Assembly: GCA_963802145.1 (NCBI GenBank)
Contig: CAWDHN010000012.1
Coordinates: 291,567-355,566, forward strand
From: an uncultured Rikenellaceae bacterium
Lineage (GTDB): Bacteria; Bacteroidota; Bacteroidia; Bacteroidales; VadinHA17
Length of the DNA stretch: 64,000 nt
Direction: 5' to 3'
The translations under genes and the position numbers were made by a program. The notes beneath the pieces were generated by a model. The model was not told the origin of the DNA. It made no database searches and was given only the letters and a program-made list of their open reading frames with translations. Shown here in pieces: positions 8,060 through 45,262 of this stretch. Position 1 is the first letter of the stretch, and each line of letters begins with the position of its first letter.

Positions 8060-8515
8060 GCCTAATTCGGGTTAGATTATAGTTTAAAAGAATACTTGAA
8101 ACTCGTGTTCGGGGTGGCTTGTAAAATTCTGTCAGGGTTGTTCATTATATATAGGTGCAATTTGCAATACCAGATCAAGAATAAGTGTAAATAGAACACT
8201 AAAACACAAATATAAACAAATTAAAATAACATTAAAACAATTTTTAATATTTTTTTACGAAAAATTAAAAAAAATATATTGCCTGCCCCGTAACTGCCTT
8301 AAAAACTCAAACAACCTGTCCTGTTCGGCCAGGGAGGCACACAAAGTCCATGAACCTTATATAACAGGATATCAGTGGCTAACAGGGGTCTCAATGTAAA
8401 TAATCTACTTCTCCTGGAGATACCTTACCTTTCGGGTGGGAGTACGATTTTGCGATTAAAAACTTGTTAAAAAGGACCGGAAATTGCTATATTGCCAAAA
8501 AGTTACTCTAAATCA

Positions 8516-9193
8516 ATGAAGATCCTGATTGTCGAGGATGAGACCAAGGTGGCGTCATTTATTAAAAGAGGCCTTGAGGAGAACCATTATGAGGTTGATC
8601 TGGCTTACGACAGCGAGTTTGCTGAAAAACTTGCCATACAGTATAAATATAATCTCTTCATCCTTGATGTCATCATTCCCGGTACCGGAGGCCTTAAATT
8701 ATGCAAAAAGTTCAAGACGGACTTTCCGGATGTCCCGGTTCTTATGCTCACCGCCCTGGGAACCACTGATGACAAGCTCGCCGGTTTTGACGCCGGAGCC
8801 AATGATTACCTCGTAAAGCCATTTGAATTCCGGGAATTGCTTGCGAGAGTGAAAGTTCTTCTGAAAACATCCGGTCCGGCACGTGAAACATCCGACACTC
8901 TCAGGTTTGACGACCTTGAACTTGACCTTGACAGGAAAGCGGTTCGGAGGGGAAACAAATATATCAGTTTGACAGCCAAGGAGTTCTCCCTTCTCGAATA
9001 TTTCATGAGAAATGCAGGCAGGGTACTTTCAAGAAATGATATTGCCGAAAAGGTATGGAATGCCAGTTTCGATTTCAGCACAAATGTTGTGGATGTTTAT
9101 GTCAATTTCCTGCGGAAGAAAATTGATAAGGGACATAATAAAAAACTGATCCAGACCAAGGTGGGTTTCGGTTATATTTTCGGAGACCGATAG
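8516..9193 (+). CDS. OmpR/PhoB-family response regulator
   Basis: Receiver domain (MKILIVEDE, FILDVIIPG, LMLTALG, DDYLVKPF) plus a winged-helix output domain (LTAKEFSLLEYFMRNAGRVLSR, VDVYVNFLRKKID). The track ORF starts at TTG 8492. The in-frame ATG at 8516 gives the canonical MKILIVEDE N-terminus. Confidence 0.9.
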   Translation: MKILIVEDETKVASFIKRGLEENHYEVDLAYDSEFAEKLAIQYKYNLFILDVIIPGTGGLKLCKKFKTDFPDVPVLMLTALGTTDDKLAGFDAGANDYLVKPFEFRELLARVKVLLKTSGPARETSDTLRFDDLELDLDRKAVRRGNKYISLTAKEFSLLEYFMRNAGRVLSRNDIAEKVWNASFDFSTNVVDVYVNFLRKKIDKGHNKKLIQTKVGFGYIFGDR

Positions 9194-9212: not shown

Positions 9213-10589
9213 ATGCAGATAAGAACCCGGTTGACGCTTCAGTTTCTCCTGCTGGGAGGATTGATAATGCTGATTGCTTCGCTTGCCATTTACTATTTTT
9301 CGGCTAACCTCAGGAGGAACGACTTTAACCATCTCCTTAAATCGAGGACCGAAAGCGTAGCAAGGCTTGTGCTCGACAGCTATGAATACAATACAAACCT
9401 TATCCTGAGGAGTGGGTCCGGAAACCCTGACAGACTCCTGGGTGAAAAATTCCTGATTGTCACCCTGGACACGAATATTCTGTTCACAAACGACAAAAAC
9501 TGGAAATTAGAAGAAATCAATACCATCATCGGGCAGGTAAGAGCCGGCAAGGATGTGTTTTATAGGGACTATCCCTATGATATCCTGGGGACGACGCATA
9601 ATGCAGGATCATCCGAATTTGTCGTAATTGGTGCAGCTATCGACAATGACGGCCAATTGCACCTGAAAAAACTGAGAATCATTCTCATGGTGGTTTGCCT
9701 TACCAGCCTTGTCTCATTCTTTTTCGCGGGGTGGTTCTTTTCGGGGAAAGCCCTTAAACCAATCTCAAAGGTGGTGAAGAAGGTCGAGGATATATCAATA
9801 ACCAGTCTGAACTTAAGAGTTCCCGAAGGCAATGGCACTGACGAGATCGGAAGGCTGGCCAAAACCTTCAATAAAATGCTCGGGCGTCTTGAGACATCAT
9901 TTGGCATGCAGAAGAGTTTTATTGCAAATGCATCGCATGAGCTCCGAACACCTCTTACCTCAATCAACGGACAGATTGAGGTCCTGATGATGGAGGACCG
10001 GACAACGGAAGACTATAAAAATACACTTGGCTCAGTACTCGAAGACATCAAATCACTTATCTCCCTCTCAAACAGATTGATCCTGATTGCCAGGACCGCC
10101 TCGGAAGGCCCGACTGGTTATAATAATAAAATCAGTATGGACGAGATCATCTGGCAGGCCCTTGAAGAGATGAAAAGATACAATCCCTCCTATAATATTG
10201 ATATTTCACTTGATGATTCTGTTACCGATTCTGAAAAGTTAACAGTCGCCGGAGATGAATACCTTCTTAAAACAGCAGTTTCCAACCTGATCGAAAATGC
10301 ATGCAAATATTCTTCGGACCATTCTGTCAATATCGCGATCGGATGTGAGGAGCAGTATGTAAAGGTGATTTTCGAAGACAAGGGTATCGGCATACATGAG
10401 GAAGATATACAGAAAATCATTGAGCCTTTTTACAGAGGTACAAATACCGCAGGAATTCCGGGAACGGGCATTGGCCTGTCACTTGTGGATCAGATCATTA
10501 AAAACCATAACGGAACAATCAGCATCAACTCAAAGCCAGGCGAGGGTACACGGATTACCCTCCTGCTTCCGGCACTCTCATCAGATTAA
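9213..10589 (+). CDS. Sensor histidine kinase (two TM segments, HAMP, HisKA, HATPase_c)
   Basis: Two TM helices flank a periplasmic segment of about 130 aa. H-box ANASHELRTPLTSI; N/G boxes NLIENACKYS, FEDKGIGI, GTGIGLSLV. It starts 19 nt after the response regulator. Confidence 0.9.
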   Translation: MQIRTRLTLQFLLLGGLIMLIASLAIYYFSANLRRNDFNHLLKSRTESVARLVLDSYEYNTNLILRSGSGNPDRLLGEKFLIVTLDTNILFTNDKNWKLEEINTIIGQVRAGKDVFYRDYPYDILGTTHNAGSSEFVVIGAAIDNDGQLHLKKLRIILMVVCLTSLVSFFFAGWFFSGKALKPISKVVKKVEDISITSLNLRVPEGNGTDEIGRLAKTFNKMLGRLETSFGMQKSFIANASHELRTPLTSINGQIEVLMMEDRTTEDYKNTLGSVLEDIKSLISLSNRLILIARTASEGPTGYNNKISMDEIIWQALEEMKRYNPSYNIDISLDDSVTDSEKLTVAGDEYLLKTAVSNLIENACKYSSDHSVNIAIGCEEQYVKVIFEDKGIGIHEEDIQKIIEPFYRGTNTAGIPGTGIGLSLVDQIIKNHNGTISINSKPGEGTRITLLLPALSSD

Positions 10590-10739: not shown

Positions 10740-12410
10740 ATGCGAAAAAATCCCTTTTGCACCCTTGTATTAATATTTCTGTTGTTATTCGCCGGCTGCC
10801 GTCAGGGGAGCAACCCGGCCTCAGGACCGGGGAAGAAATCCGGGACTCCAATTACAGCCGCAACTGATGATTTCTACCAGGAGACAAGTCAGGAGGCAGG
10901 ACTCGATTTTGTTCACTCCATCGGCGATGACGACCTCACCAATATTATCCAGTCAGACGGCGGAGGCGCTGCCTTTTTCGACTTTGACCAGGATGGCTTC
11001 ATAGATATTTATGTGTGCAGCGGTACATGGCTTGAAGGATTCAGCAAGAGCGAAAAGCCATCTGAAATGCCCGGGAATCGCCTTTACAGGAACAGGGGCA
11101 ACGGATCATTTGAAGATGTTACGAAGAAGGCAGGTGCCAGCGGGCCATGGTACACCATGGGAGTGGTAGCCGGTGATTTCAACAATGACGGCTACCCTGA
11201 TCTTTTTCTCAGCAATTACGGAGCTAATGTCCTGCTGAGGAATGACCGCAACGGAACATTCACTGATGTAACAAAAAAAGCAAATGTTGCCGGCGGGAAT
11301 GAGTGCAGCGTCGGTGCCGCATGGGCGGATTATGACAATGACAGCTTTCTCGATCTCTATGTGGGCAATTATCTTGCCTTTGATCCGGATTACAAGTATT
11401 ACTATGCACCTGACGGATTTCCGGGACCAATGGCCTACGATGCCCAGAAGGATGTCCTTTACCATAACAACGGCGACGGTACCTTTGAAGATGTAACTGA
11501 GAAAATGGGAATCAGGGACATTGACGGAAGGGCAATGGGAGTCGGTGCAGCTGATTATGACGATGACGGGTTCATCGATATCTTCGTTGCCAACGATCAC
11601 ACATTGAACTATCTGTGGCACAACGATGGCGGCAAGGGATTTACAGATAAGGGAACCATGTCGGGAACCGGCTTCAGTCAGGGTGGAGAAGCCACCGTAA
11701 GCATGTCAGTCGACTTTGCCGATTATAATAACGACGGACTGCTTGACCTGTTTGTTTCGGATGACACCTATTGCTCCCTTTATGAGAATCTGGGCAACGG
11801 GGTATTCTCTGACAGGGGAGTCTCATCTAATATCTCAATGCAGGCTGCACAGTTCGTAGGATGGTCGTCTTCGTTCATGGATTTTGATAATGACGGTGAT
11901 CAGGACATATTCAAAACCAACGGCGCACTGAAACATCTGTATGGCCAGGAAGATCAGATTTTTGAAAATCAGGGGAACGGATTATTCAAGGATATTTCTC
12001 TGGAGCTCGGCAGGTATTTCAGCGAGGAACATGTTGGAAGAGGTGCATGCATCGGGGATTACGACAATGATGGCGATCTCGATATCTTCATAGTCAATCT
12101 TAACAGCAGGGCAGTTTTTCTCAGGAATAACAAGGGGAATCAGAACAACTGGCTTATGCTTGGACTGGAAGGTACTGTAAGCAACAGGGAAGGGATAGGG
12201 GCAAGGGTGAAGATAACATCCGGAGGCAAGACACAGATAGCACAGAGAAAAACAACCACCGGCTACCTTTCCCAGAATGATCCGAGAATTCATTTCGGCC
12301 TGGCAGGCAATAATATGGTCGAAAGGATCGAGATAAAATGGCCCTCGGGAAAGGTACAGATCCTTGAAAATGTAAAAGCCAACCAGATACTCGAAGTAAA
12401 GGAACCTTAA
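10740..12410 (+). CDS. CRTAC1-family FG-GAP/VCBS-repeat lipoprotein with a C-terminal ASPIC/UnbV domain
   Basis: Lipobox (LLLFAGC). Repeated FDFDQDGFIDIY, GDFNNDGYPDLF, ADYDNDSFLDLY, ADYDDDGFIDIF, ADYNNDGLLDLF, MDFDNDGDQDIF, GDYDNDGDLDIF. UnbV/ASPIC-type C-terminus (GIGARVKITSGGKTQIAQRKTTTGYLSQNDPRIHFGL..IEIKWPSG). Confidence 0.85.
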   Translation: MRKNPFCTLVLIFLLLFAGCRQGSNPASGPGKKSGTPITAATDDFYQETSQEAGLDFVHSIGDDDLTNIIQSDGGGAAFFDFDQDGFIDIYVCSGTWLEGFSKSEKPSEMPGNRLYRNRGNGSFEDVTKKAGASGPWYTMGVVAGDFNNDGYPDLFLSNYGANVLLRNDRNGTFTDVTKKANVAGGNECSVGAAWADYDNDSFLDLYVGNYLAFDPDYKYYYAPDGFPGPMAYDAQKDVLYHNNGDGTFEDVTEKMGIRDIDGRAMGVGAADYDDDGFIDIFVANDHTLNYLWHNDGGKGFTDKGTMSGTGFSQGGEATVSMSVDFADYNNDGLLDLFVSDDTYCSLYENLGNGVFSDRGVSSNISMQAAQFVGWSSSFMDFDNDGDQDIFKTNGALKHLYGQEDQIFENQGNGLFKDISLELGRYFSEEHVGRGACIGDYDNDGDLDIFIVNLNSRAVFLRNNKGNQNNWLMLGLEGTVSNREGIGARVKITSGGKTQIAQRKTTTGYLSQNDPRIHFGLAGNNMVERIEIKWPSGKVQILENVKANQILEVKEP

Positions 12411-12425
12411 AGCCACTGGCCCTCT

Positions 12426-13856
12426 ATGATTAAGCGGATACTCATTTTGAGTGAAATTATTTTGGTGGGGCTGGCTTGTACGATAAGTATATCGTGCGGT
12501 AAACATGCCTCAGATGATAATAAACTGATCCTTACGGAAGCTCCCGGAAATGTAAACCCGCCTGATTATTCAGGCGGGGCATCATGGCGTAATTTGCCCG
12601 GTGCAAGGATCAGTTCAATCGATTTAAAAAGATCCGGTTCACAAAAAACACTGACAGGGGATTTTTATTCAGCCTGCTTCCCTGAAATTTCTTATGACGG
12701 AAAGTTCATGCTCTTTACAGGTCAGCATAATGAAAGTGATCCATGGCAGATATGGGAAATGAACCTGAAGACTCTTAAATACAGGCAGGTTACTTCAGGC
12801 ACGGAAGATTGTGCTGACCCCGTCTATCTGCCGGGTGAGCGAATTGTATTCAGCAGACTGACTGTCAATGATACGGTTAAGTCGGCACGCTGCCTTTATA
12901 CCTGCAATGCCGATGGCTCGGACCTCACACAGATAACATTCAGCCCTGATGACAATCTTGCCACAACGGTATTAAAAGATGGCCGCCTGCTTACAGTCAG
13001 ACACAGGTTACTGCCGGATCAGGGAGGACCAATGCTGGCAGTTATGCGACCTGACGGCACAAAAGCTGAAAAGTTCTACTCTGGTCCGGGAAATAACATA
13101 CACCTGAACCGCGCACATGAAACTGATGATGGCACTGTCATATTTGCTGAATCGTACGGTGAAAGCCCTGCCAGATACAGACTGGTTTCAATACTATATA
13201 ACAGACCATTGCATTCAAGAACTGACCTGACATCATCGGTCCCCGGGGATTTTTATAATGTACTTCCGCTCAGGCCCGACAAATATCTTGTCTCCTACCG
13301 TAAATCAGATTCAGATCGTTTTGCGCTTTATGAGTTTAATCCTGAAAAGGGATCACTCGGACCGGAAGTCTTTATTGAAAATGATTATCACATACTTGAT
13401 ATCGTCAGCGTCAAACCGCATGAGAGACCAAAAAAACTTCCAAGCGAAGTGGATGTGCAGGTGAAAACAGGGTTGCTTTTATGCCAGGATATTAACTTCA
13501 AGGATCCTTTTCTTCCGGAGAATTCCTCCTTAATGAAAAAAGCCCTGAAGATTGAGGTGCTGGGCGTTGATACAACCTATGGAGTAGTAGATGTGGAAAA
13601 CGACGGTTCATTTCAGCTGAAAGTGATGGCAGATAAGCCTTTCCGTATACGAACACTTGATAAGGACGGCAATGTTGTCGGCGGTCCGGGTTCATGGTTA
13701 TGGTTGCGACCGAATGAACGGCGGGGATGTATAGGATGCCACGAGAATCCTGAGCTGGCTCCTGAAAACATAGTGTCACTTGCAGTTAAAAAATCACCTG
13801 TTATAATACCTGTTCATATAACAGATGTCAAAGAGAAGATTGTTGAACTTGAATAG
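12426..13856 (+). CDS. Exported lipoprotein with a TolB/PD40-like beta-propeller region and one C-terminal haem c motif (CXXCH); resembles hydrazine-synthase-alpha middle-domain proteins
   Basis: Lipoprotein signal (LACTISISCGK). PD40-like segments (PEISYDGKFMLFTG, YTCNADGSDLTQITFSP, MRPDGTKAEKF). Single CXXCH, CIGCH, at nt 13728-13742 in the context WLWLRPNERRGCIGCHENPELAPE. The HzsA-middle-domain resemblance is from memory of that family, not from a search. Confidence 0.55.
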   Translation: MIKRILILSEIILVGLACTISISCGKHASDDNKLILTEAPGNVNPPDYSGGASWRNLPGARISSIDLKRSGSQKTLTGDFYSACFPEISYDGKFMLFTGQHNESDPWQIWEMNLKTLKYRQVTSGTEDCADPVYLPGERIVFSRLTVNDTVKSARCLYTCNADGSDLTQITFSPDDNLATTVLKDGRLLTVRHRLLPDQGGPMLAVMRPDGTKAEKFYSGPGNNIHLNRAHETDDGTVIFAESYGESPARYRLVSILYNRPLHSRTDLTSSVPGDFYNVLPLRPDKYLVSYRKSDSDRFALYEFNPEKGSLGPEVFIENDYHILDIVSVKPHERPKKLPSEVDVQVKTGLLLCQDINFKDPFLPENSSLMKKALKIEVLGVDTTYGVVDVENDGSFQLKVMADKPFRIRTLDKDGNVVGGPGSWLWLRPNERRGCIGCHENPELAPENIVSLAVKKSPVIIPVHITDVKEKIVELE

Positions 13857-13857
13857 T

Positions 13858-15903
13858 ATGGGAAGATTCGTAAAAATTATTATACCTGCGGCAATCCTTG
13901 TTATTCTTGGTTTTGTAATCTATAAGCCTTATCACAGGTGGGCCAGGGAACATGTCAATAATCTGACTGCTACAACTGACCACCCGCTGAAATGCGCATC
14001 GTGCCACCTTTATATTCAAAAAACAGGGCCTGTTTCAAAGATTGTCAATGCGAAATACTATTCGCCGTTTAATCTGGCATCGTCACCTGATGGAAAATTC
14101 CTTTATGTGGTTGCAGAGGAAGGCGATGCATTGCTGGTTGTAAACACTGAAAAGAACAAAGTCACGAAGGAGATTAAGGTAGGTGTCCGTCCGCACACAG
14201 TTGTCGTGAGCAGCGACGGGAAGACTGCCTATGTAAGCAACCAGTGGTCAGATAATGTGTCGGTAATTGATCTTGAAGAATACATCGTCACAGAGACACT
14301 TAAGACGGGGGGAGGACCGGCCGGCCTTACCCTCAGCGCTGACGGGAATTGGCTTTATGCAGCCAATTCATTTTCATCCGACCTGTCAATAATCGACCTT
14401 GCTTCAGGTGTTGAGCGGAACAGGCTGCTTACAGGGAATAATCCCACCGGAGTACAATTAAGTCCTGATGGAAACCTGGTGATGGTCACCAGCCGCCGGA
14501 CACTTGGGTTACCATATGGGGATTCTTTAAGGTGCGAGCTTACGGTGGTGAATGACAAAAAGCAGAGGGTTGCTGAACGCCTCGATATTAAACAGGCCTA
14601 TATGATGGAGAATATTGCCTTTACTCCTTCGGGCGACCTGGCAATAATTCCCCTTATAAGGCCTAAAAACAATGTCCCGACACTGCAGATCGAAAGAGGA
14701 TGGATGATGACAAACGGTATAGGGATCATTGAACAGAAACCTCCGGGAAGGACCATACAGTTGCTTCTTGACGAACCCAATGCCTATTATGCCGATCCCT
14801 TTGATATTGAAATAACTCCGGACGGGAAAAAAGCTTTTGTTTCACATGCGGGGGTCGATCGTATATCTGTAATTGATATAGACGCAATACGGAAACTTAT
14901 TTCTGAGTCGGACGACAGGATGCTTACTGCATATTCCAACTACCTGGGCATAAGCAGCAGAATAGTTCTCAGACGTATTCCCACGGGAGCAAACCCCAAG
15001 GGAATGGCCTTGTCACCAGATGGGAACAAGCTTTATGTTGCTGAGCATCTTGAGGACAGAATAGCCGTAATCAGCACTGAAAGCCTTGAGACAATCGGTA
15101 ACATACCCCTCGGCGGACCACGCAGGATAACAGTAGCCCGTGAAGGCCGCCGTCTGCTCAACAATGCCGGAGGCACATTCCAGAATCAGTATTCATGTTA
15201 TACATGTCATCCTGATGTACATGAAGACGGGCTGGTCTACAACATGGCATCGAAAGATATGGGTCGCAATGTGACAAATACGCAATCGCTCAGAAACATC
15301 GGGGAGACTCCTCCTTATAAATGGAACGGGAAAAACCAGAGTATCTACAAGCAGGACGGAATGCGATTTTCGACAGTTCTTACAAGAACCGAGGCTTTCA
15401 GTTATAAGGAACTTGACGCTCTTACGGCATACGTAATGGCAGGAATACCCAATCCGCCAAATCTGCAATACAATCCTGATGGAGAACTTACTGATTCTCA
15501 AAGACGCGGTAAGGAGATTTTTGAAAGAACACATGATTTCAACGGAGTAGAAATACCGGTTTTCAACCGCTGTGTCACCTGCCATCCTGCTCCCTTTTAT
15601 ACCAATAAGAAAATGGTGGATGTCGGCACCCTTGCGGCCAGTGACGATTCAATCTTTTTTGACACGCCGCATCTTAACAATATAGTCTATTCGCCGCCTT
15701 ACCTTCATGATGGCCGTGCTGCTACCCTCGAAGAGATATGGACCATCTATGGGAAAACCGAAGAACATGGGGCGGTCAATGACCTCACAAAAACCAATCT
15801 TAACGATCTGGTGGAATATCTGAAATCTCTCAGGGATGAGGAGTATGATAAAAAACCCGCTTCAATAAACCAGGCCTCTTTTGCTCAAAAAAAGGTGAAA
15901 TAA
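13858..15903 (+). CDS. Membrane-anchored tri-haem protein: N-terminal CXXCH, YVTN-type beta-propeller, and a C-terminal di-haem cytochrome c peroxidase/MauG-like domain
   Basis: N-terminal TM helix (FVKIIIPAAILVILGFVIY). CXXCH motifs: CASCH 13993-14007, CYTCH 15196-15210, CVTCH 15571-15585. YVTN-like repeats (SPDGKFLYVVAEEGDALLVVN, SSDGKTAYVSNQWSDNVSVID, SADGNWLYAANSFSSDLSIID, SPDGNKLYVAEHLEDRIAVIS). CCP signature context (TPHLNNIVYSPPYLHDGRAATLEEIW). I prefer the ATG at 13858, 1 nt after the upstream stop, over the track start at 13825. Confidence 0.75.
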   Translation: MGRFVKIIIPAAILVILGFVIYKPYHRWAREHVNNLTATTDHPLKCASCHLYIQKTGPVSKIVNAKYYSPFNLASSPDGKFLYVVAEEGDALLVVNTEKNKVTKEIKVGVRPHTVVVSSDGKTAYVSNQWSDNVSVIDLEEYIVTETLKTGGGPAGLTLSADGNWLYAANSFSSDLSIIDLASGVERNRLLTGNNPTGVQLSPDGNLVMVTSRRTLGLPYGDSLRCELTVVNDKKQRVAERLDIKQAYMMENIAFTPSGDLAIIPLIRPKNNVPTLQIERGWMMTNGIGIIEQKPPGRTIQLLLDEPNAYYADPFDIEITPDGKKAFVSHAGVDRISVIDIDAIRKLISESDDRMLTAYSNYLGISSRIVLRRIPTGANPKGMALSPDGNKLYVAEHLEDRIAVISTESLETIGNIPLGGPRRITVAREGRRLLNNAGGTFQNQYSCYTCHPDVHEDGLVYNMASKDMGRNVTNTQSLRNIGETPPYKWNGKNQSIYKQDGMRFSTVLTRTEAFSYKELDALTAYVMAGIPNPPNLQYNPDGELTDSQRRGKEIFERTHDFNGVEIPVFNRCVTCHPAPFYTNKKMVDVGTLAASDDSIFFDTPHLNNIVYSPPYLHDGRAATLEEIWTIYGKTEEHGAVNDLTKTNLNDLVEYLKSLRDEEYDKKPASINQASFAQKKVK

Positions 15904-15915
15904 AATCATAAAAAA

Positions 15916-17109
15916 ATGTCTCACAAATATTTAATTAAGTACTCAGCTTTTACAATCATCCTGGCAGCAATTGTACTGGCTGGCATAATGCTTTTAAAAA
16001 GAGCGGATAAATCTGAAAAGCCGGTGAAGAGTGAACATATGTCCGTTTCAGGTACCTATACAAACAGTTCAGACAAAGATCTTCCGGGCAGTTCGGGTTT
16101 TATAAAAGAAGCAAAGGAAATGCCTGTCTATGGCAACTGGCGTAACTTCACAACAAAAGACGGACTGCTTTCCGATCATGCCTATACGGTGCGCATCATC
16201 GGAGACAGCGTGCTTGTTGGCACTCACGAGGGTCTTGCAGTCTACTCCGGGGGGAAATGGCGTAATTATACCACTAATGACGGATTGGCTCATAATGGTG
16301 TGGTGTCAATCGATTACAGCAAACTGACAGGCGATATCTGGATTGGAACCCTGGGGGGCCTGAACCGTTGGTCATCCGGTAAATTTGAAACTTTCAACCA
16401 GTTTAACAGCGGCATGCCTAACGATCTGGTCTATTGCGTTTATTGTGACGGGAAAGACGTGTGGGTTGCAACCGGAGGCGGAGCAGGACATTATGACACC
16501 TTTACAAGGGTGTGGGAAATATTCACTGAACAGAATGCCCCGATGCATGAGCCCTGGACCTATGGCGTTTCAACCGGCGATGGCAAGGCATTTATCGCTG
16601 CCTGGGGAGGAGGAGTGATAGAGTATAATATGGCAACCAGGCACTTCAGGGATTATGTCGACCCTGACGGCTTTATGGAAATAGATCTTCAGCCTGATGA
16701 TGGTATTATCCACGACATTACCACAGCTACAGCTTATGCAGAGGGTATCCTGTGGGTTTCAACTTACTTCGGGATGAGCCGGTATGACGGCAAAAACTGG
16801 AAGGGCTATTTTGATCACGACAGCGGCCTGGCAAGCAATTTTATCAACTTCCTCAGGGCTGAAGGCCGGAAGGTATTTGTTTGCAGCGATAACGGATTAA
16901 GCAGCACAGACGGGACCACATGGGTTACATATAAAAAGGACGATAACAGTGAAAACGGGAAGGCCATAATTACAAACGGAACAGAAAAAAAGGAGATCCC
17001 CTTATCACCTTCAATAGCACACAATTTTATTATCGGCGTGGATGCCGATGAAAATTACCTGTGGGTTGCTACCTCAAAAGGGGTCAGCCGTGGAGAACTT
17101 ATGAGATAA
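15916..17109 (+). CDS. Membrane-anchored beta-propeller protein with two-component-regulator propeller (Reg_prop) repeats and no kinase or output domain
   Basis: N-terminal TM helix (AFTIILAAIVLAGIMLL). Repeats of the Reg_prop type (TTKDGLLSDHAYTVRI..VLVGTHEGLAVY; TTNDGLAHNGVVSIDY..IWIGTLGGLNRW; SGMPNDLVYCVYCDGKDVWVATGGG). Confidence 0.65.
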   Translation: MSHKYLIKYSAFTIILAAIVLAGIMLLKRADKSEKPVKSEHMSVSGTYTNSSDKDLPGSSGFIKEAKEMPVYGNWRNFTTKDGLLSDHAYTVRIIGDSVLVGTHEGLAVYSGGKWRNYTTNDGLAHNGVVSIDYSKLTGDIWIGTLGGLNRWSSGKFETFNQFNSGMPNDLVYCVYCDGKDVWVATGGGAGHYDTFTRVWEIFTEQNAPMHEPWTYGVSTGDGKAFIAAWGGGVIEYNMATRHFRDYVDPDGFMEIDLQPDDGIIHDITTATAYAEGILWVSTYFGMSRYDGKNWKGYFDHDSGLASNFINFLRAEGRKVFVCSDNGLSSTDGTTWVTYKKDDNSENGKAIITNGTEKKEIPLSPSIAHNFIIGVDADENYLWVATSKGVSRGELMR

Positions 17110-17156
17110 ATAGAGATGACTATAACAGAAACAAAATTAAAATCACAATAACTGAT

Positions 17157-17732
17157 ATGGAGAACAGGCAGCTACTTATAGATCCGTCAAGAATCACGGA
17201 TGGAGAACGGGAAGAAATGATAAAATTAGGGATACTTTCTGAAGATAACCGTATACGTGAATACATATATCCTGAGCTTCACAGGGAGCGCCCGCCGATT
17301 GAGAAACATGTGGTTCATGCCCCGCAGGTTCTTAATGAGGCTTATAATTATCAAAAACCATCCTCCTTCTCCAGGGCATTAAGGCTTGAATTCGGAGGCT
17401 ATAAGATCTTGCTTATATCTGGCACTGCCAGTGTTAATGAAGAGGGCAAAGCCGAACACATCGGTGATTTCAAAGCACAGGCCTGGAGGACTTACAGGAA
17501 TATCACCACCCTGTTGTCTGCTGAGGATATGACGTGGCATGATGTAGTAAGGACCACCAACTATCTGAGGGACATTGAACGTGACTATGAGGAGTTTAAT
17601 AAGATCCGGACTTCCTTCTTCCGATGGCTGAATCTTGACCCGCTGCCTGCCAGCACCGGAATCCAGGCAAGGCTTTGCTGGGAAACCCTCCTTGTGGAGA
17701 TCGAGGCTTATGCAGTTTGTAAAATCAAATAA
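17157..17732 (+). CDS. YjgF/RidA-fold (endoribonuclease L-PSP superfamily) protein with an N-terminal extension of about 70 aa; no signal peptide
   Basis: Core ILLISGTASVNEEGKAEHIGDFKAQAWRTYRNITTLLSAEDMTWHDVVRTTNYLRDI...STGIQARL...LVEIEAYA. The SGTAS motif (canonical RidA has SGQ) is what I recall from the chorismatase (FkbO/Hyg5/XanB2) branch, which is unverified. I prefer the ATG at 17157 (MENRQLL). The track start at 17061 overlaps the upstream gene. Confidence 0.65.
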   Translation: MENRQLLIDPSRITDGEREEMIKLGILSEDNRIREYIYPELHRERPPIEKHVVHAPQVLNEAYNYQKPSSFSRALRLEFGGYKILLISGTASVNEEGKAEHIGDFKAQAWRTYRNITTLLSAEDMTWHDVVRTTNYLRDIERDYEEFNKIRTSFFRWLNLDPLPASTGIQARLCWETLLVEIEAYAVCKIK

Positions 17733-17742
17733 TTTACCTTAT

Positions 17743-19065
17743 ATGAAGCATCATAACAGGCTTTTACTTATTGCCCTCCTTTTTGCCATTCAGCCGCTTT
17801 CATGTCTGACAGGGCAGGAGAAACCCGCTAACTATGGGAACATCCCGGATGAACTGGTTGCTTATGATAAATACATGAAAGCCTATAAGTATCATTTTCT
17901 GACGCCTACACAGTTTTATGGCGCAGGACGTGAAATTCCTCCTCCTGCGAATCTGGAAGAGGTCAGAATTGGTTTCCTTGGGCCATTGGAAGGATCACCT
18001 ATCGTATCGCTTGGAAAGCAGATGCTCCAGGGTTCCCAGCTTGCAATTGAAGAAGCCAATAAAAAAGGAGGCTACAATGGCATACCTTACAGGCTGATGA
18101 TCCACACTGACGTAGGCTTGTGGGGTGCTGCTGCCAACGAAGTTGTCAAAATGGATGATGAGAAGGTCTGGGCCTGGCTCGGTACGATCGATGATAACAA
18201 TTCACATGTGGCAATCAGGGCCACCCTGAAACTGGAGATTCCCAACATGAATACAGGGGATCCGGATCCCACGTTTACTGAAACCAACATCCCGTGGGTT
18301 GTACGTGTAATCCCTGATGACCGGCAAAGCGGCTATGTCCTGGTTGACCGGATTTACAGAACCGACAAGCACTCACGTGTGGCGGTAATGAGAGCAAACA
18401 ACCGTTACGGCCGGGTCGGGATCCTTCATTTCAGCCGCTCAGCCACCCGTCTCGGATTCCCGGTTATAATTGAAGAACGTTTCAGTGACGGGGAGACGGA
18501 TTTTAAGGAACGTCTTGAAAGGATAAAGAAGATTTCACCAGATGCCATCGTAATCTGGGGAAATGCTAAGGAATCCGCACTTATTCTCAGGCAGATTCGG
18601 GAACTTGGCATGAAACAGCCTGTTTATGGTTCTGACAGGATGGTCAATCCCGAATTCCTGGAGATAGCAGGTAAGCTGGCTGATGGTGTAGTGACCACCT
18701 GTCAGTATAACCCTGACTCGGATAATCCCAAATTGAAGGCATTTAAGTCCAGCTATATCAAAAGGTTTGGTCAGGAACCTGATGTTTTTGCCGCCCACGC
18801 TTATGACGGCATGAATATTCTCATTGCAGCCATTGAGAAGGCCGGATTGAACCGGGTATTAATACGTGATGTGCTGACTGATCTGAAAACCTTCCAGGGG
18901 TATCAGGGGGTCACCGGTGTAATGAATTTTGACGCAACCTGGAATAACGTCAGACCTATTTTCCTGGCTGAGTGCGTTAACGGCAAATTCAAATTTTCGC
19001 CCGCTCCTCCTTTTGATAAAGGCGACCAGATATATAAGAAACCTAAAACAGGATATCAATATTAA
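17743..19065 (+). CDS. Periplasmic substrate-binding protein, LivK/Peripla_BP_6 type (orphan: no permease or ATPase nearby)
   Basis: Signal peptide ([21 protein letters not shown]). Type I SBP features ([75 protein letters not shown]). I prefer the ATG at 17743. Confidence 0.78.
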
Positions 19066-19076
19066 CACATTTAGAA

Positions 19077-19955
19077 ATGGAGTCAGATAATTACAACGAT
19101 CCTGCAGTGATCGGAGGATGTTCAGTTCACGTCAGGGTGGACAGAAAGTCAAAACCTGATCCGACAATTGTTGATGTAAAGGGAATAAAGTTCGGATCTG
19201 CAGAGGTTGTCATTATTGCCGGACCCTGTTCGGTTGAAAGCCGCGAACAAATGATGGAGACAGCTAAGGCTGTCAGGTCAGCAGGAGGAGTGATTTTAAG
19301 GGGAGGTGCCTTCAAACCCCGTTCGTCTCCCTATAATTTCCAGGGACTGGGAGAGGAAGGACTGAAATTGCTTCAGGAGACCAGAAGTGAAACAGGGTTG
19401 CCAATTGTCACAGAAGTTATGGATACCCGGATGGTTGAACTGGTTGCCGGATATGCTGATATGCTGCAGATAGGCTCACGGAATATGCAGAACTATCCAT
19501 TGCTGAAGGAGGTCGGGATGCTCCGCAAACCGGTATTGCTGAAACGCGGAATGATGGCAACAATAGAGGAGTTTTTGCTGGCTGCAGAATACATTCTTAA
19601 CCAGGGAAACGAACAGGTAATCCTGTGCGAAAGGGGGATACGCACTTTTGAAACCGCCACCAGAAATACCCTTGATCTTGGCGCTGTGCCTATGCTTAAG
19701 CATCTGAGCCATCTTCCGGTGATTGTTGATCCGAGTCACGGAACCGGACACCGGTGGATGGTGCCTTCAATGGCCAAAGCAGCTGTTGCTGCCGGAGCCG
19801 ACGGACTCATAATGGAAGTACATTATAAACCCCATGAGGCCCTGTGCGACGGACATCAATCGCTGAGCCCCGATGAATTTACACTTCTGATGACTGATCT
19901 GAGGAAGATTGCACAAGCTGTCGGCAGGGATATTTATCCTCATGAGATTAAGTAA
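19077..19955 (+). CDS. 3-deoxy-7-phosphoheptulonate (DAHP) synthase, type I-beta
   Basis: [152 protein letters not shown]. This is the I-beta DAHPS pattern, not the KdsA pattern. Confidence 0.88.
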
Positions 19956-21069
19956 GGCCATCTGTCAGGCATGCCTGATTGCAACGGTTATAATTTTCGC
20001 TTCAGGGATAGCTTTTGCCCAGGATTCCTCACATCCGGGACAATCTGTCAAAATCGGATTGCTTATACAGGATAGCAGCTGGACTTCAGCAGTTCATGGA
20101 GCTGAGCTTGCCATCAGTGATGCAAACAGAAACGGCAGCTCAAACGGCAGTATGTTTCAGCTTGTTGTCAGGTCAATGGAAGGCCCGTGGGGAACCGGAT
20201 CAAAACAGGCGGTCAGCCTTATTTTTGAAGAGAGAGTGGGGGCTCTTGTTGGCATTCATGACGGACGAAATGCCCACCTGGTTGAACAGGCGGCCACAAA
20301 ATCGCAGGTGGTTTTCCTTTCGGCATGGCCTGGTGACCCTACCCTGTCGCAGGCATTCGTTCCCTGGTTCTTTAACTGTGTCCCGAATGACAACCAGCAG
20401 GCAGCTGCAATATTTAAAGAAATATATGAAATAAGGAGATATCGGAATATAGTTGTTGTTCATGATAAGGAATACGATTCCGAGAAGAGCTTTTCCAGCT
20501 TCATTAATATCATCAAAACGTCAGGAAAACCTGAACCGTTGCAATTCAATACTGAAGATTATGACCAGAAGACAGATGCTCTGGCTGATAAAATAGGCGA
20601 TTCAGATGCGGACTGTCTTATACTCTTTTGCGGGCCTCCGGTTTCATTAGAATTAACCAGGCAAATAAAAAAGAAAAATTATCTCCTTCCGGTTTTTGGT
20701 CCGATAGCCCTGCTGAATGAGAATATACTTTCATCCGGGGAATTGAAGGAGTTCGACAATGTGTTTTCAGTTCCTGCAGATAAATGGCCGGATGCGGAAA
20801 ACCGGAAATTCAGGAGGGAATTCGAAACAAAATATGGATACGTGCCAGGAATGGTTGCTACATATTCATATGACTGCGTGAGAGTACTTATTGAGGCTAT
20901 AAATCAATCAGGAAATTCCGATCGCGAGATGATACAGAATTCTCTGAAGAATATCCGCTTCAACGGTTTAACCGGGCCAGTTCAGTTTGATGATAAAGGC
21001 AACAGAATGGGAAAATTCGAAATGATGAAAACAAGGAACGGCCTTCCCGTCACCTTCAAAACTGATTAA
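19942..21069 (+). CDS. Second periplasmic substrate-binding protein, LivK/Peripla_BP_6 type (orphan)
   Basis: Signal peptide ([27 protein letters not shown]). SBP features ([52 protein letters not shown]). The ATG at 19942 overlaps the DAHPS stop by 14 nt. Confidence 0.72.
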
Positions 21070-21092
21070 GTTTAATTTGCTAATTTGGTGGC

Positions 21093-24000
21093 ATGAAAAA
21101 GTATTGTCTCTTTGTAGTGACCACTCTCCTCATCACATTATTTACGGGATGCAGGAACAGTGGTGAAAAATCCACGCAAAAATCGACGGATCTGATTACA
21201 GCCAGAACACTTGGGCTGGCATATCTTGAGGAGTTTAAGCTGGAAGAGGCTGAAAAGGAATTCCTGAAGTTCATTGATCTGGCCCCCGATGATAAGTTTG
21301 GCTATGCAAATCTCGGTCTTACTTACTTAAGGATGGCTAATTATCCGGATGCAGAAAAAGCACTCGCCAAAGCAATAAAGATCGATCCCAAAGATCCGGA
21401 TGTCAGGCTTATCCTGGCCACTGTATATAAAATGAACAATGAGCGTGAAAAGGCTATTAAAGAACTGTTAAGTGCACTTGAGTTTGCTCCTGATCATAAA
21501 AAAATACTTTACGAGATTTCCGAGTTGTATTCCACCCAGCCTGACGAAGATTCATGGAAACAACGCGAGAACTATATTGAAATACTTGTCCGGAATGCAC
21601 CCGATAATCTTGTCCCGCGCCTCAACCTTACAGATATCCTCATCAGGAAAGGTGAATTCGATAAGGCAGTTGAGCAGATGGAGATAATCAATAAGCAGTT
21701 TCCGGAATTCCCCAGGGAGGCTGTTGAATACTTTGACAAGACGCTCTCCTTACTGAGAAAAAAGGATAGGGAAAATGCAATTATCCAGTTTACTATTTTT
21801 CATAATTATCTGAAAGTTACCCCCCCTTACCAGGCCGGGATCATGGATCTGAAGGGCCCCGGAGGATCCCTTATCGGATTTCCGGTCATAACTTTCGACA
21901 GACGGGGTCCTTCATCCGGTAATGAAGAAAACAGGTCGCTGCTCGATATTATCAGATTTACCAATGTGGCTGCGGGAGCCGGTCTGGACATAATTCCGCG
22001 AACCGAAGAGGGTACCAATGCGGAATTCAGGTTTTCGTCCCACGTCGTAACATGCGATTATGACGGCGACGGAGATATTGATATCTATGCCGGCAGCTAT
22101 GATCCGGCATCCTCATCATATAAGCATTTTTTGCTCAGAAACGACATGGGCAAATATGCTGATGTGACCCGGGAAGCAGGCCTGAATCATTCCGGAATTG
22201 AAGCATCTGCAGCTTTTGCCGACTTTGATAATGACGGTTTCCCCGATCTGTTTGTTATGAAGGAGGGGGGCGACATGCTCTACAGAAATACAGGAAAGGG
22301 CACCTTTGAAGATATAACAGCCAGATCAAAGGCAGGCAGCAGGACCGGGGGTAAAAAGGCTCTTTTCTTCGATATGGATCACGACGGTGATCTGGATCTT
22401 TTTGAGATACTTCCGCAGTCGAATCTCTATCTGAGAAATAATTCAGACGGGACATTTGAGGATCAGTCTGCAAAACTTGGCCCGCAGACCGCAGGAATTA
22501 TTTCCACAGCCGCAGCTTTCGGAGATTTTGATGATGACGAGGATATCGACTTCATTGTTGTCAGTAAAAACTCAGATGTCTGCCTGTATTCAAATCAGAG
22601 ACAGGGCGTTTTCAGGGATATTGCTGCCGAAAGCGGACTGAAAGGGTATGAAGGAGCCGGGGCGGTTGCTGTAGGTGATTATAATAACGACGGATATCTT
22701 GACCTCTTTATCGGTTCTCTCACCGGAGAAAATCATGCGCTGTTAAGGAACCTGCGAAACGGCACTTTTGAGAAGGAGAAGAATAATTCAGAAATGCTCC
22801 GGTCACTTGAAAAGGTAAATGTCTTCGATGCTTCATTCATAGATTTCAATAATGACGGATTCCTGGATATTCTCGCGGCAGGAGAAGCACAGGGGATGGA
22901 TGGTCGCGGGATCAATCTCATTTACAATGACGGAAAAGGAAATTTCAGGAATGTTTCAGAATTATTGCCGTCTGAAGTAAAATCAGGAAAACAGACAGCA
23001 ATTTTCGATTATAACGATGACGGTGACCTCGATGCGCTGATTGCCGGAATAAATGGCGGAGTTGCCCTGCTAAGGAATGACGGCGGGAATAACAACCATT
23101 TTATAACAATGAAGCTGGTGGGACTGAGAGCAGGCAGCGCAAAAAATAACTACTTCGGCATCGGAGCGAAAGTCGAAATGCGTGCCGGCGATCTCTATGA
23201 AACAATGGTTGTAACCAATCCCAATATCCACTTTGGGATAGGCAGCAATTCGAGAGCCGATATCATCAGGATCAGATGGACTAACGGAGTGCCTCAGAAC
23301 ATTTTCATGCCGGTATCAGACCAGTCACTGGTAGAGCAGCAGACCCTCAAGGGTTCATGTCCTTTCCTCTATGGATGGAACGGGGAGGAATATGTTTTTG
23401 TGAAGGATATCTTATGGAGAAGCGCTCTCGGGATGCCGACCGGAATAATGGGCGGCACCACCTCATATGCCTTTGCTGATGCCTCGGATGATTATCTGAA
23501 AATTCCGGGCGAGATGCTGAAGCAGAACAATGGGAATTATATTATCCAGGTCACATCCGAACTCTGGGAAACCATTTACATTGACGAACTTGAACTTGTT
23601 GCAGTGGACCACCCCGATTCACTTGATATATTTGTTCCTGAACAATTTGGTCCTCCTCCCTTCCCGGGACCGAAAATCCTTACCGTTAAAGAGAAACATG
23701 CACCGGTATCAGCCGTGGATTCGGAAGGGAATGACGTGCTTTCCTTTATATCCCGGAAAGATGACATCTATCTTGCAGGTTTCAAACCGGGCAAATACCA
23801 GGGAATAACTGAAATGAGGGACCTTATAATTGATCCCGGGCAAATTGATGTGTCAGGAAGATTTTATCTTTTTATGAATGGATGGATCTTCCCGACCGAT
23901 GCAAGCATAAACGTGGCAATATCACAATCAGATGACATCAAAGTGACTCCTCCTTTAATCCAGGTTTTGAATAAAAAGGGTGAGTGGGTGACAGTGACCG

Positions 24001-26349: not shown

Positions 26350-26361
26350 AACCCATAAAGT

Positions 26362-31612: not shown

Positions 31613-31635
31613 TTCAGATGGGTTGGTTTAATGCT

Positions 31636-33015: not shown

Positions 33016-33087
33016 TGAGTTGAAATTTAATCAGTTACTCTGTATAATCTTCCTGTGGCGACAGACATAATGGCACATGTGCCGGGA

Positions 33088-35361: not shown

Positions 35362-35382
35362 GGTCTATTAAGTATTATCTGG

Positions 35383-36504: not shown

Positions 36505-36519
36505 ATTACGGGTTCTGTT

Positions 36520-37980: not shown

Positions 37981-38086
37981 TTAATTATAAGAGGTTTATT
38001 ATTGTACACAAGCTGCGCATTCCATTGCAGGCAACGTCCATGAACAGTTTTAAGCGTAAATAAAAGTATGCAATAAGATTTAAATG

Positions 38087-38100
38087 TGCAACCGATTGCA
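38087..38100. promoter_or_regulatory. Candidate LacI-family operator
   Basis: TGCAACCGATTGCA fits the generic LacI/GalR/CcpA operator pattern TGnAAnCGnTTnCA, with perfect TGCAA/TTGCA arms. It lies in the divergent intergenic region between the GPH-GH10-GH3-GH30-GH115 operon and the LacI gene. Confidence 0.5.
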
Positions 38101-38156
38101 AAAAATATTTGATTTTGTTTCAATTATTTATGTTTTATTACTTATTTTGAAGAATT

Positions 38157-41359: not shown

Positions 41360-41389
41360 GCATCGGTATAAATCATCAGATGAGACTAT

Positions 41390-42424: not shown

Positions 42425-42436
42425 AAAAAGAACCTT

Positions 42437-43924: not shown

Positions 43925-43935
43925 ACATTAATACT

Positions 43936-45255: not shown

Positions 45256-45262
45256 TATTCAG

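Follow-up and report, generated by a model that had tools for sequence, protein, structure and literature searches.

In a 64,000-nucleotide stretch of DNA from an uncultured Rikenellaceae bacterium (GenBank assembly GCA_963802145.1, contig CAWDHN010000012.1, positions 291,567 to 355,566 of the forward strand; "the window" refers to this whole stretch), two adjacent genes encode true and specific homologues of the alpha subunit and of a beta-gamma fusion of hydrazine synthase (HZS), in a form that is not itself a hydrazine synthase. The first gene (12426–13856; 476 amino acids), here called A, encodes a lipoprotein resembling the alpha subunit HzsA. The second (13858–15903; 681 amino acids), here called BC, encodes a membrane-anchored protein in which a propeller resembling the beta subunit HzsB is fused to a di-haem domain resembling the gamma subunit HzsC. 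We consider it likely that A and BC are the two polypeptides of an HZS-like (alpha plus fused beta-gamma) complex, and that a 12-gene operon (10740–28630), found in several bacterial phyla, is built around this complex as its redox core.

The two genes are co-directional on the forward strand, as are all operon genes described below. The stop codon of A (TAG, 13854–13856) and the start codon of BC (ATG, 13858) leave a spacing of 1 nt. Starting BC at an alternative ATG, 13825, would produce a 32-nt overlap with A; ATG 13858 is the preferred start, and gene calls on 3 independent public contigs place the start of BC at the equivalent position. A contains one c-type haem motif (CXXCH), CIGCH at 13728–13742, which is the counterpart of the HZS haem alphaI site and is followed by E-N-P-E where HZS has Y-G-S-Y. 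BC contains three: CASCH at 13993–14007, an extra motif that lies beside the membrane anchor, and CYTCH at 15196–15210 and CVTCH at 15571–15585, which by alignment to HzsC occupy the equivalents of the haem gammaI (catalytic) and haem gammaII (electron-transfer) sites. Against these observed counts of 1 and 3, composition-preserving shuffles give 0.003 for A and 0.0009 for BC.

The N-terminus of A is a signal peptide with a hydrophobic stretch and a conserved lipobox cysteine, Cys24 (ISISC; 12495–12497), with Ser23 and Cys24 at least 90% conserved in the alignment of A relatives. BC begins with a single transmembrane helix (amino acids ~5–23; 13870–13926) with a hydropathy of 3.16, and the AlphaFold2 (AF2) model has a helix over residues 2–37. 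Since A is a lipoprotein and BC its transmembrane-anchored partner, the complex is placed in the periplasm. The original prediction, made from the sequence of the window alone, had put forward the two open reading frames 1 nt apart and one haem motif in A and three in BC; the coordinates are correct to the base and all four motifs lie where it placed them. It had also described A as a propeller lipoprotein and BC as a transmembrane anchor followed by a YVTN-type propeller and a di-haem domain like those of cytochrome c peroxidase (CCP) and MauG, and these architectures are borne out by the signal peptide, lipobox and TolB-like propeller of A and by the helix, propeller model and sequence matches of BC.

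A consists of the TolB-like propeller (amino acids ~33–330), a middle domain of the HZS_alpha family and the single c-type haem. The suspected kinship with the HzsA middle domain holds in a profile search, in which PF18582 (HZS_alpha) matches A with 65.9 bits (E = 4.9e-18; gathering cutoff 26.6). The match covers amino acids 384–440 (13575–13745), ends at the haem motif and aligns with residues 507–561 of 5c2v_A, the alpha chain of the HZS crystal structure. The sequence context W.W.RP.E.RGC.GCHE, which had been read as a mark of HzsA middle-domain proteins, is the signature of the A family in the form W.W.RP.ERRGC.GCHE. A single-sequence phmmer search of the PDB also has 5c2v_A as its top match (E = 2.5e-18), and a profile built from 53 diverse A relatives matches the same chain over three segments (E = 6.9e-58). 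The AF2 model of A has a predicted local distance difference test score (pLDDT) of 78, and its best Foldseek match is again 5c2v_A, with a TM score of 0.70 and E = 4e-20, well ahead of TolB. The top NCBIfam model for A is hydrazine_alpha, at 82.9 bits against an equivalog cutoff of 800. Most A-like representatives are of this short form, with 440–500 amino acids.

After its haem motif A has only a 37-residue tail (ENPELAPEN...EKIVELE; 13743–13853), which is conserved up to the final EKIVELE and has low pLDDT in the AF2 model of the isolated monomer. Two of its residues, Pro446 and Asn448, are invariant in 53/53 diverse relatives, and the tail probably wraps the haem or docks onto BC. Elsewhere in A, these 53 sequences conserve neither a His nor a Met that might act as sixth haem ligand. 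A is the least conserved member of the operon, with 35–55% identity between loci as opposed to 60–80% for FG1 (the lipoprotein encoded directly upstream of A), BC, and the RidA-like protein, first binding protein (SBP1) and 3-deoxy-D-arabino-heptulosonate 7-phosphate (DAHP) synthase encoded downstream.

The top NCBIfam models for BC are hydrazine_BC (230.6 bits; cutoff 1250), hydrazine_beta (208.7 bits; cutoff 560) and hydrazine_gamma (73.6 bits; cutoff 625), and a single-sequence phmmer search of the PDB matches 5c2v_B at E = 4.8e-49 and 5c2v_C at E = 4.9e-16. The seven-bladed propeller (amino acids ~68–417; 14059–15108) is modelled by AF2 with pLDDT above 90 from an alignment of 120 relatives at ≥68% identity, and Foldseek superposes it on 5c2v_B with a TM score of 0.90, a root mean square deviation of 2.3 Å and E = 5.8e-32. 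The di-haem domain (amino acids ~421–660; 15118–15837) is poorly modelled (pLDDT <50), so its assignment comes from sequence alone. A profile of the BC family matches 5c2v_C with 111.7 bits (E = 2.8e-31) and both CXXCH motifs aligned, as against 38 bits for the MbnH-type enzyme 6e1c and 27–30 bits for the CCPs 1iqc, 3o5c and 6qkn. Within NCBIfam the same domain scores 73.6 bits with hydrazine_gamma, 31.6 with MbnH and 25.1 with MauG. The family PF03150, which covers the CCP/MauG fold, is also above its cutoff (35.8 bits; cutoff 25.6), and BC has further matches to Cytochrom_C and YVTN/lactonase families. The domain thus sides with HzsC and not with ordinary peroxidases.

Residue conservation in BC was read from 18 sequences drawn from Bacteroidales, Flavobacteriaceae, Cytophagales, Gemmatimonadota and one Chloroflexota bin. 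The propeller carries a loop, RPKNNVPTLQIERG (amino acids 268–281; 14659–14700), that is the counterpart of the HZS beta 245–260 tunnel loop. Its residues R268, P269, K270, N271, Q277 and G281 (RPKN..P..Q..G) are invariant in 18/18 sequences, and AF2 models residues 272–281 with pLDDT <50. In the di-haem domain, Trp489 (15322–15324) is invariant; it stands where HZS gamma has His144 and where CCP and MauG have their inter-haem Trp. His637 (motif HG; 15766–15768), also invariant, aligns with the MHG motif of HzsC, where CCPs have a Met ligand; it is likely the distal ligand of the gammaII-like haem, which would then be bis-His. Gln277, Trp489, Asp500 and His637 are each conserved in 15–18 of the 18 sequences, across phyla. 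The gammaI-like pocket has Arg503, Arg510, Glu512 and an FS motif in common with HzsC, with Gln499 and Asp500 added in BC, and the domain further contains a PYLHDG motif and a probable Ca-site Asn. The stretch PPYLHDGRAATLEE begins at BC residue 613. In the N-terminal haem module His32 is invariant and His42 is present in 16/18 sequences, which suggests that the extra haem is a bis-His electron-transfer haem.

Hydrazine synthase carries out the reaction NO + NH4+ + 3 e- → N2H4. Its haem alphaI is ligated by Tyr591, while His587 of the CXXCH motif is diverted to a Zn ion that it shares with Cys303. A has CIGCH-ENPE where HZS has CSGCH-YG-S590-Y591, so Tyr591 is absent; no Tyr is conserved at positions +1 to +9 after the motif in the 53 A relatives, whose profile aligns with 5c2v_A only as far as the motif. 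The region of A aligned to Cys303 holds no Cys. As the original prediction had noted, the C-terminal haem domain of the alpha subunit (alphaII) is missing, since A has one CXXCH only and 37 residues after it; A has 476 amino acids compared with 782 in the 5c2v_A chain. In the propeller, the Mg-binding Glu253 of HZS beta is replaced by Gln277 (invariant in 18/18, taking a deduced chain-to-precursor offset of 34). In the di-haem domain, gamma Cys165, which makes a third covalent link to the haem, is replaced by Asp500, with no Cys in the stretch; gamma Asp168, which lies at the axial water of haem gammaI, is replaced by Phe504; and gamma His144 is replaced by Trp489. All HZS models of NCBIfam score far under their equivalog cutoffs for both proteins.

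What the pair retains of HZS is the propeller and PF18582 domain of alpha, the seven-bladed propeller with its loop of beta and, by sequence, the two aligned CXXCH motifs of gamma. Profile searches of the 64-kb window found no octahaem hydroxylamine oxidoreductase (HAO) or hydrazine dehydrogenase (HDH), nitrite oxidoreductase (NXR), electron-transfer module (ETM) or nitrite reductase genes. Two further statements of the original prediction stand with these results: nothing else in the window is anammox-like, with no HDH, HAO or NXR genes found, and a chemistry other than hydrazine synthesis is more likely, because the catalytic residues of HZS are absent. Matches of the A/BC type to hzs genes in metagenomes must therefore not be counted as anammox potential.

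Asp500 (15355–15357) takes the position of gamma Cys165 in the profile alignment, and 3 of the 18 sequences, all distant relatives, have Cys there. In two unclassified bacterial metagenome-assembled genomes (MAGs) and one Gemmatimonadota MAG (loci L062, L067 and L083), and in the Cytophagales locus L070, the motif KQDG is changed to MQCG or RQCG, so that a Cys again stands where HZS gamma has Cys165. The published survey of HZS homologues discussed below reports Cys at this position for its clade I only (PMC12758564).

The pair is widespread. A word-indexed search with BC returned 2711 matches at E ≤1e-10, of which the best 120 all had ≥68% identity and came from Bacteroidales MAGs, and an exhaustive search of 50%-identity representatives with A returned 372 clusters at E ≤1e-30 and 1378 at ≤1e-10. 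In a scan of one genome per GTDB species, at least 577 genomes encode an A relative. The closest genomes among those listed are Bacteroidales/Rikenellaceae MAGs, and carriers include the cultured aerobic flavobacteria Maribacter polysiphoniae DSM 23514 and Lutimonas saemankumensis, as well as Lutibacter, Prolixibacteraceae, Cytophagales, Rhodothermales, Gemmatimonadota and one Chloroflexota bin. The proteins of the Chloroflexota bin (locus L057) are near-identical, with identities of 62–79%, which hints at transfer or mis-binning.

Gene order, read in the 80 best loci and complemented by all-against-all clustering of the neighbours in 83 loci, is essentially fixed from Bacteroidales to Flavobacteriaceae, Cytophagales, Rhodothermales, Gemmatimonadota and the Chloroflexota bin. 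By automatic count, BC directly follows A in 70 of the 72 species-level loci with enough sequence, so the pairing proposed from the single window is conserved elsewhere; of the two misses, L062 is a coordinate artefact with BC present and L076 lies next to a scaffolding N-run. An FG-GAP gene is directly upstream of A in 67/68 loci, again counted automatically, and the sole miss, L062, has an FG-GAP gene too. The gene for RegP, a further periplasmic propeller protein, is directly downstream of BC in 59/59 loci. The RidA-like gene is present in 48/83 loci and the DAHP synthase gene in 46/83, hence in most carriers and not all; the position of the DAHP synthase gene is constant in its 46 loci, Gemmatimonadota included.

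The last two genes of the operon, for an enzyme like asparagine synthetase (AsnS-like) and a radical S-adenosylmethionine (radical-SAM) enzyme, are always attached. They either follow FG2, a later FG-GAP gene of the operon, or form with it a block directly upstream of FG1, as in L014, L046, L048, L051, L053, L059 and L070; this relocation as a block indicates that the linkage is functional and not a chance inheritance. When metagenomes were scanned with the AsnS-like protein as seed, every locus recovered encoded the second binding protein (SBP2), the tetratricopeptide repeat (TPR) lipoprotein TPRFG, FG2, the AsnS-like protein and the radical-SAM enzyme. Within 10 kb on either side of the 83 loci, no permease, ATPase, extra cytochrome, N-cycle gene or peroxide gene is conserved. 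The conserved neighbours beyond the operon in that range are SusCD genes and a two-component system, both in a Bacteroidales subset only. In Maribacter polysiphoniae (L039, 1393–7705), genes for a MacAB-TolC-type efflux system (OEP, HlyD, ABC, FtsX) and a LytTR two-component pair lie divergently upstream; they are probably unrelated, as this flank is not seen at other loci.

The HZS-like architecture as such is no longer new, because it was published in December 2025 as clade III homologues. Hagglund et al. (Genome Biol Evol) looked for homologues of HZS in GTDB and RefSeq and divided the co-localised alpha/beta-gamma pairs among clades I–IV (PMC12758564). Clade III is described as an FG-GAP/CRTAC1 gene, alpha, fused beta-gamma and, downstream, two ABC binding-protein genes, with an alpha that lacks haem alphaII and the last ~100 residues and a beta-gamma with one extra haem motif (PMC12758564). 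In clades I–III there is a 2-amino acid gap at Ser590/Tyr591, the loop Glu is lost and Trp replaces His144; these clades were judged not to be hydrazine synthases, and no function was proposed (PMC12758564). Among the entries of the supplementary tables are Bacteroidota matches, Maribacter included (PMC12758564).

The window has the same arrangement: the alpha-like gene is directly upstream of the fused beta-gamma-like gene, FG1 is upstream of A and not between A and BC, and SBP1 and SBP2 are downstream. A has one CXXCH and BC three, one of them N-terminal, and the Trp at gamma 144 is present while the beta-loop Glu and alpha Tyr591 are missing. The locus thus matches clade III in layout and substitutions, as judged from the published descriptions. 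The only neighbours that the clade III paper names are the FG-GAP gene and the pair of binding-protein genes. Added here are RegP, the RidA-like protein, DAHP synthase, TPRFG, a third FG-GAP protein, the AsnS-like enzyme and a radical-SAM enzyme like the archaeosine enzyme RaSEA, which complete the 12-gene operon and its cytoplasmic module; the finding that the tunnel loop is invariant from phylum to phylum; the alternation of Asp and Cys at gamma 165; and the count of carrier species, cultured aerobes among them. The membrane-proximal haem of BC, probably bis-His, is a further addition.

Compared with the HZS of Kuenenia stuttgartiensis (PDB 5C2V/5C2W; EC 1.7.2.7), the pair has in common a propeller with a haem-bearing middle domain, a seven-bladed propeller with a PKN..P loop, a di-haem CCP-fold domain with an R..E..FS pocket motif and a probably bis-His second haem, a total of four haems and a periplasm-equivalent location. 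It differs in being built from two polypeptides where Kuenenia has three, with the gene order reversed, and in the site of the fourth haem, which is in the alphaII domain of HZS but N-terminal and membrane-anchored in BC. Tyr591, Cys303, Glu253, Cys165, Asp168 and His144 are all replaced in A/BC. The anammox partner genes are absent here, and anammox HZS in turn lacks the obligate CRTAC1-like partner. A parallel in layout is found outside Brocadiia in Phycisphaerae UBA1845 MAGs, where an hzsA-like gene is directly upstream of a fused hzsBC-like gene, and a broader HZS-like family with other substrates was hypothesised on that occasion (FEMS Microbiol Lett 2023; PMC10732223). Those MAGs also encode hao, nxr and ETM-like genes, and the paper considered that they might represent new anammox bacteria; the Bacteroidales window has no such genes. 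BC resembles the CCP/MauG/MbnH enzymes (PF03150) in the pair of CXXCH motifs of its CCP-fold domain and in the inter-haem Trp, PYLHDG and the probable Ca-site Asn. Its similarity to them is low (25–38 bits, compared with 112 to HzsC), its di-haem domain shares a polypeptide with a propeller and has an HzsA-like haem protein as partner, and its second haem is probably bis-His, not His/Met as in CCP or His/Tyr as in MauG.

Taken together, A and BC are most likely a membrane-anchored periplasmic enzyme with four haems and two active sites joined by a tunnel. Electrons would enter at the extra bis-His haem on the BC membrane anchor (His32/His50), pass to the bis-His gammaII-like haem (His576/His637) and cross via Trp489 to a five-coordinate gammaI-like catalytic haem (His451), whose pocket would be formed by Gln499, Asp500, Arg503, Arg510 and Glu512. 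A small intermediate could then move through an inter-subunit tunnel gated by the loop RPKN..P..Q277 and reach the haem of A. That haem may have an ordinary His ligand and be open and reducible, unlike the Tyr-ligated haem alphaI of HZS; its openness follows from the lack of a conserved sixth ligand. HZS haem alphaI is Tyr-ligated and not reducible even at −610 mV (PMC12607021), which fits a non-redox condensation at that site. A normally His-ligated haem should be redox-active, and so the second site of A/BC most likely performs a redox step and not the non-redox condensation that forms hydrazine. The obligate periplasmic partners would be the CRTAC1-like propellers, RegP, TPRFG and both amino-acid-type binding proteins, which act as scaffold or deliver substrate or cofactor. 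DAHP synthase and the RidA-like, AsnS-like and RaSEA-like proteins would form a cytoplasmic module, probably for the synthesis or recycling of a small molecule that derives from shikimate or an amino acid and serves the system; this module and the two binding proteins suggest that such a molecule takes part.

For the substrate, our tentative first choice is a small N-oxide of the NO/hydroxylamine type, reduced in two steps to ammonium. Oxidative modification of a partner protein, such as a CRTAC1-like propeller, is ranked second as a possible but doubtful activity, and plain peroxide reduction third and unlikely; the remaining probability lies with none of these three. The second-ranked activity would make A/BC a maturation enzyme like MauG or MbnH, in which the two haems of the BC di-haem domain, with H2O2 or O2 as oxidant, become a high-valent pair and oxidise a residue of a neighbouring partner to a cross-link, quinone or kynurenine. 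The target would most plausibly be FG1 or A, and the operon would build an enzyme with a protein-derived cofactor. Trp489 is invariant at just the inter-haem position that CCP and MauG need for electron hopping, and Gln499 follows 10 residues later, a spacing that presumably corresponds to CCP Gln104 and MauG Gln103. PF03150 is above its cutoff, the operon includes a radical-SAM enzyme, and the substrates of MauG and MbnH are encoded beside them, as the CRTAC1-like gene is always beside A/BC. HzsC, however, is much nearer to BC than MbnH or MauG in both comparisons (111.7 versus 38 bits; 73.6 versus 31.6 and 25.1), and the second haem appears to be bis-His as in HZS and not His/Tyr as in MauG. 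An invariant tunnel loop and an open haem in A would moreover have no obvious use in an enzyme that only modifies proteins, and the operon has no gene for a small precursor or light subunit. A/BC as an HZS-like tunnel enzyme is accordingly preferred to this alternative.

The other two alternatives fare worse. That an ordinary periplasmic CCP became fused by chance to a YVTN propeller, with A an unrelated TolB-like neighbour and the likeness to HZS superficial, is very unlikely. It would agree with the PF03150, Cytochrom_C and YVTN/lactonase matches and with the public annotations of "YVTN family beta-propeller protein" or "cytochrome c peroxidase", yet all three modules match HZS chains first and by wide margins, the propeller superposes on 5c2v_B, loop included, with a TM score of 0.90, the HZS_alpha domain in A is above cutoff and A and BC are paired in essentially every locus. 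We reject this explanation, which the HzsC profile scores, the pairing and the alpha profile match largely refute. Conversely, the real homology to all three HZS subunits in the same module order might indicate a functional hydrazine synthase and cryptic anammox-type N–N bond formation from NO and ammonium outside Brocadiia, a possibility raised in 2023 for the Phycisphaerae hzs-like genes (PMC10732223). Here the missing alpha Tyr591 and alphaII domain, the changes of Glu253 to Gln, Cys165 to Asp and His144 to Trp, scores of 82.9 and 230.6 bits against equivalog cutoffs of 800 and 1250, the absence of HDH, HAO and NXR from the 64-kb window and the occurrence of the system in at least 577 species, aerobic Maribacter and Lutimonas among them, make it extremely improbable. 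We therefore reject it on the missing residues, low scores, absent partner genes and aerobic carriers; the clade III paper likewise concludes that these proteins are not hydrazine synthases (PMC12758564).

Several points weigh against the preferred reading of A/BC as an HZS-like tunnel enzyme at the core of the operon. The A–BC interface and the tunnel are predicted from homology and the conserved loop only. The pocket geometry of the di-haem domain cannot be read from its AF2 model, and Foldseek recovered the propeller only. Three of the 53 diverse A-like proteins (P0292, P0308 and P0358) have no CXXCH and align F..WD there, so haem-free variants of the alpha-like subunit exist in the wider family. 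The roles of 9 of the 12 operon products are based on family names alone, and the operon and its flanks contain no pointers to N-oxide or peroxide metabolism.

A bolder version of the reading can be given only a low probability. The operon might encode a widespread, oxygen-independent relative of HZS in which the two-haem tunnel still serves nitrogen chemistry. This could be a channelled conversion of NO, through hydroxylamine, into ammonium; such a reduction would be ancestral, and hydrazine synthesis would have evolved from it when haem alphaI became non-reducible. It could alternatively be N–N or N–C bond formation on an amino-acid- or shikimate-derived molecule from the DAHP synthase/AsnS-like/RaSEA-like module, handled by the LivK-type binding proteins. 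Either nitrogen version, if true, would add a new nitrogen-cycle enzyme to common Bacteroidota and Gemmatimonadota, and the origin of anammox would become experimentally tractable in cultured aerobes such as Maribacter. HZS has long been regarded as an orphan enzyme, and proteins of the A/BC kind are its nearest non-anammox relatives, common and present both in cultured aerobic flavobacteria and in anaerobic sediment Bacteroidales. With cultured carriers (Maribacter polysiphoniae DSM 23514 and Lutimonas saemankumensis) and a defined list of partners, the function of this conserved periplasmic and cytoplasmic 12-gene system, which is still without a name, can be tested.

The 12 genes of the operon are separated by intergenic gaps of −14 to +47 nt and run in the order FG1, A, BC, RegP, RidA-like, SBP1, DAHP synthase, SBP2, TPRFG, FG2, AsnS-like and radical-SAM. 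FG1 (10740–12410) is a CRTAC1-like lipoprotein with a lipobox at FAGC20, seven FG-GAP repeats and an UnbV_ASPIC domain (Pfam FG-GAP_3, 1e-56; UnbV_ASPIC, 7.7e-24); it matches human CRTAC1 (PDB 9etn) at 3.6e-22 and is ~70% identical across Bacteroidota. A search of the literature on bacterial CRTAC1/ASPIC/UnbV proteins found nothing functional. RegP (15916–17109), a periplasmic propeller with a membrane anchor, belongs to the "two-component regulator propeller" type (Pfam Reg_prop) and matches the BT4663 sensor domain (PDB 4a2l) at 6.5e-18. A third FG-GAP/UnbV_ASPIC protein, FG2 (24652–26349), is again CRTAC1-like. The 1190-amino acid lipoprotein TPRFG (21093–24665) combines TPR, FG-GAP and UnbV_ASPIC regions with ~440 uncharacterised C-terminal residues. 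This C-terminal part (residues ~750–1190) matched no Pfam family, yet it is 55–70% identical across loci.

Two LivK-type periplasmic binding proteins are encoded, SBP1 (17743–19065; Peripla_BP_6, 2.7e-47; best PDB match the amino-acid-binding 3td9, 4e-29) and SBP2 (19942–21069), and the operon contains no cognate permease or ATPase for them. Between them lies the gene for a cytoplasmic class I-beta DAHP synthase without a regulatory domain (19077–19955; NF006421, 453.8 bits; cutoff 335). The RidA/YjgF-family protein (17157–17732; Ribonuc_L-PSP, 1.3e-15; TIGR00004 and TIGR04444) is cytoplasmic, has an 80-amino acid N-terminal extension, is weakly similar to chorismatases and is ~80% identical across carrier loci. 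By eye, the Arg of its IQARL motif is what we take to be the equivalent of RidA Arg105. The AsnS-like protein (26362–27690; Pfam Asn_synthase, 8.7e-09; TIGR01536) is a cytoplasmic PP-loop ATPase (FSAGVDSG) without the N-terminal Cys nucleophile, ~72–76% identical across Bacteroidota. The radical-SAM enzyme (27683–28630) has CPFRCLMC at amino acids 57–64 and is related to RaSEA (TIGR01210, 113 bits; cutoff 212). Neither of these two proteins had a match in the PDB. A role for the two in making a ribosomally synthesised and post-translationally modified peptide was considered and is unlikely, because the gaps between the operon genes leave no space for a precursor-peptide gene.

Upstream of the operon are genes for an OmpR-type response regulator (8492–9193, with the likely true start at ATG 8516, MKILIVED; its counterpart in L001 matches Pfam Response_reg and Trans_reg_C) and a sensor histidine kinase with HAMP, HisKA and HATPase_c domains (9213–10589), both on the forward strand. 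The pair is linked to the operon only in a subset of Bacteroidales, with the response regulator upstream of FG1 in ~27/83 loci. A look by eye for a Bacteroidetes-type promoter motif upstream of FG1 established none.

The G+C content of the window is 0.44–0.46 from position 1 to 28630 and 0.50–0.56 from 28643 to 64000, with the step exactly at the convergent gene ends 28630/28643. The low-G+C block comprises the SusCD genes, the two-component system and the whole HZS-like operon, and from this step the block with the operon could have been acquired horizontally.

Beyond the operon, the window holds a xylan-utilisation block, a formate dehydrogenase, glutamine synthetase III and housekeeping genes. 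The alpha subunit of the NAD-type formate dehydrogenase is spread over two forward-strand frames, 50814–51812 and 51712–53565, that overlap by 100 nt, with TIGR01591 positions 1–82 in the first and 79–670 in the second and a NuoF-like gene upstream at 49186–50817. The split reflects a frameshift, an error in sequencing or a gene that is truly divided, and not a selenocysteine stop. The glucuronoxylan-utilisation block (28643–46684) encodes glycoside hydrolases (GH) and associated proteins, namely GH115, an XynC-like protein, GH3, GH10, a major facilitator superfamily transporter, a LacI regulator, GH67, xylulokinase and xylose isomerase. The gene that directly follows the one for GH67, an alpha-glucuronidase, encodes an MtaA/CmuA-like methyltransferase of the uroporphyrinogen decarboxylase (URO-D) family (41390–42424), and a protein like methylenetetrahydrofolate reductase with a DUF5981 domain is encoded inside the same block (45263–46684). 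Together these two could provide a pathway of methyl transfer that takes up the 4-O-methyl group carried by the side chains of glucuronoxylan.

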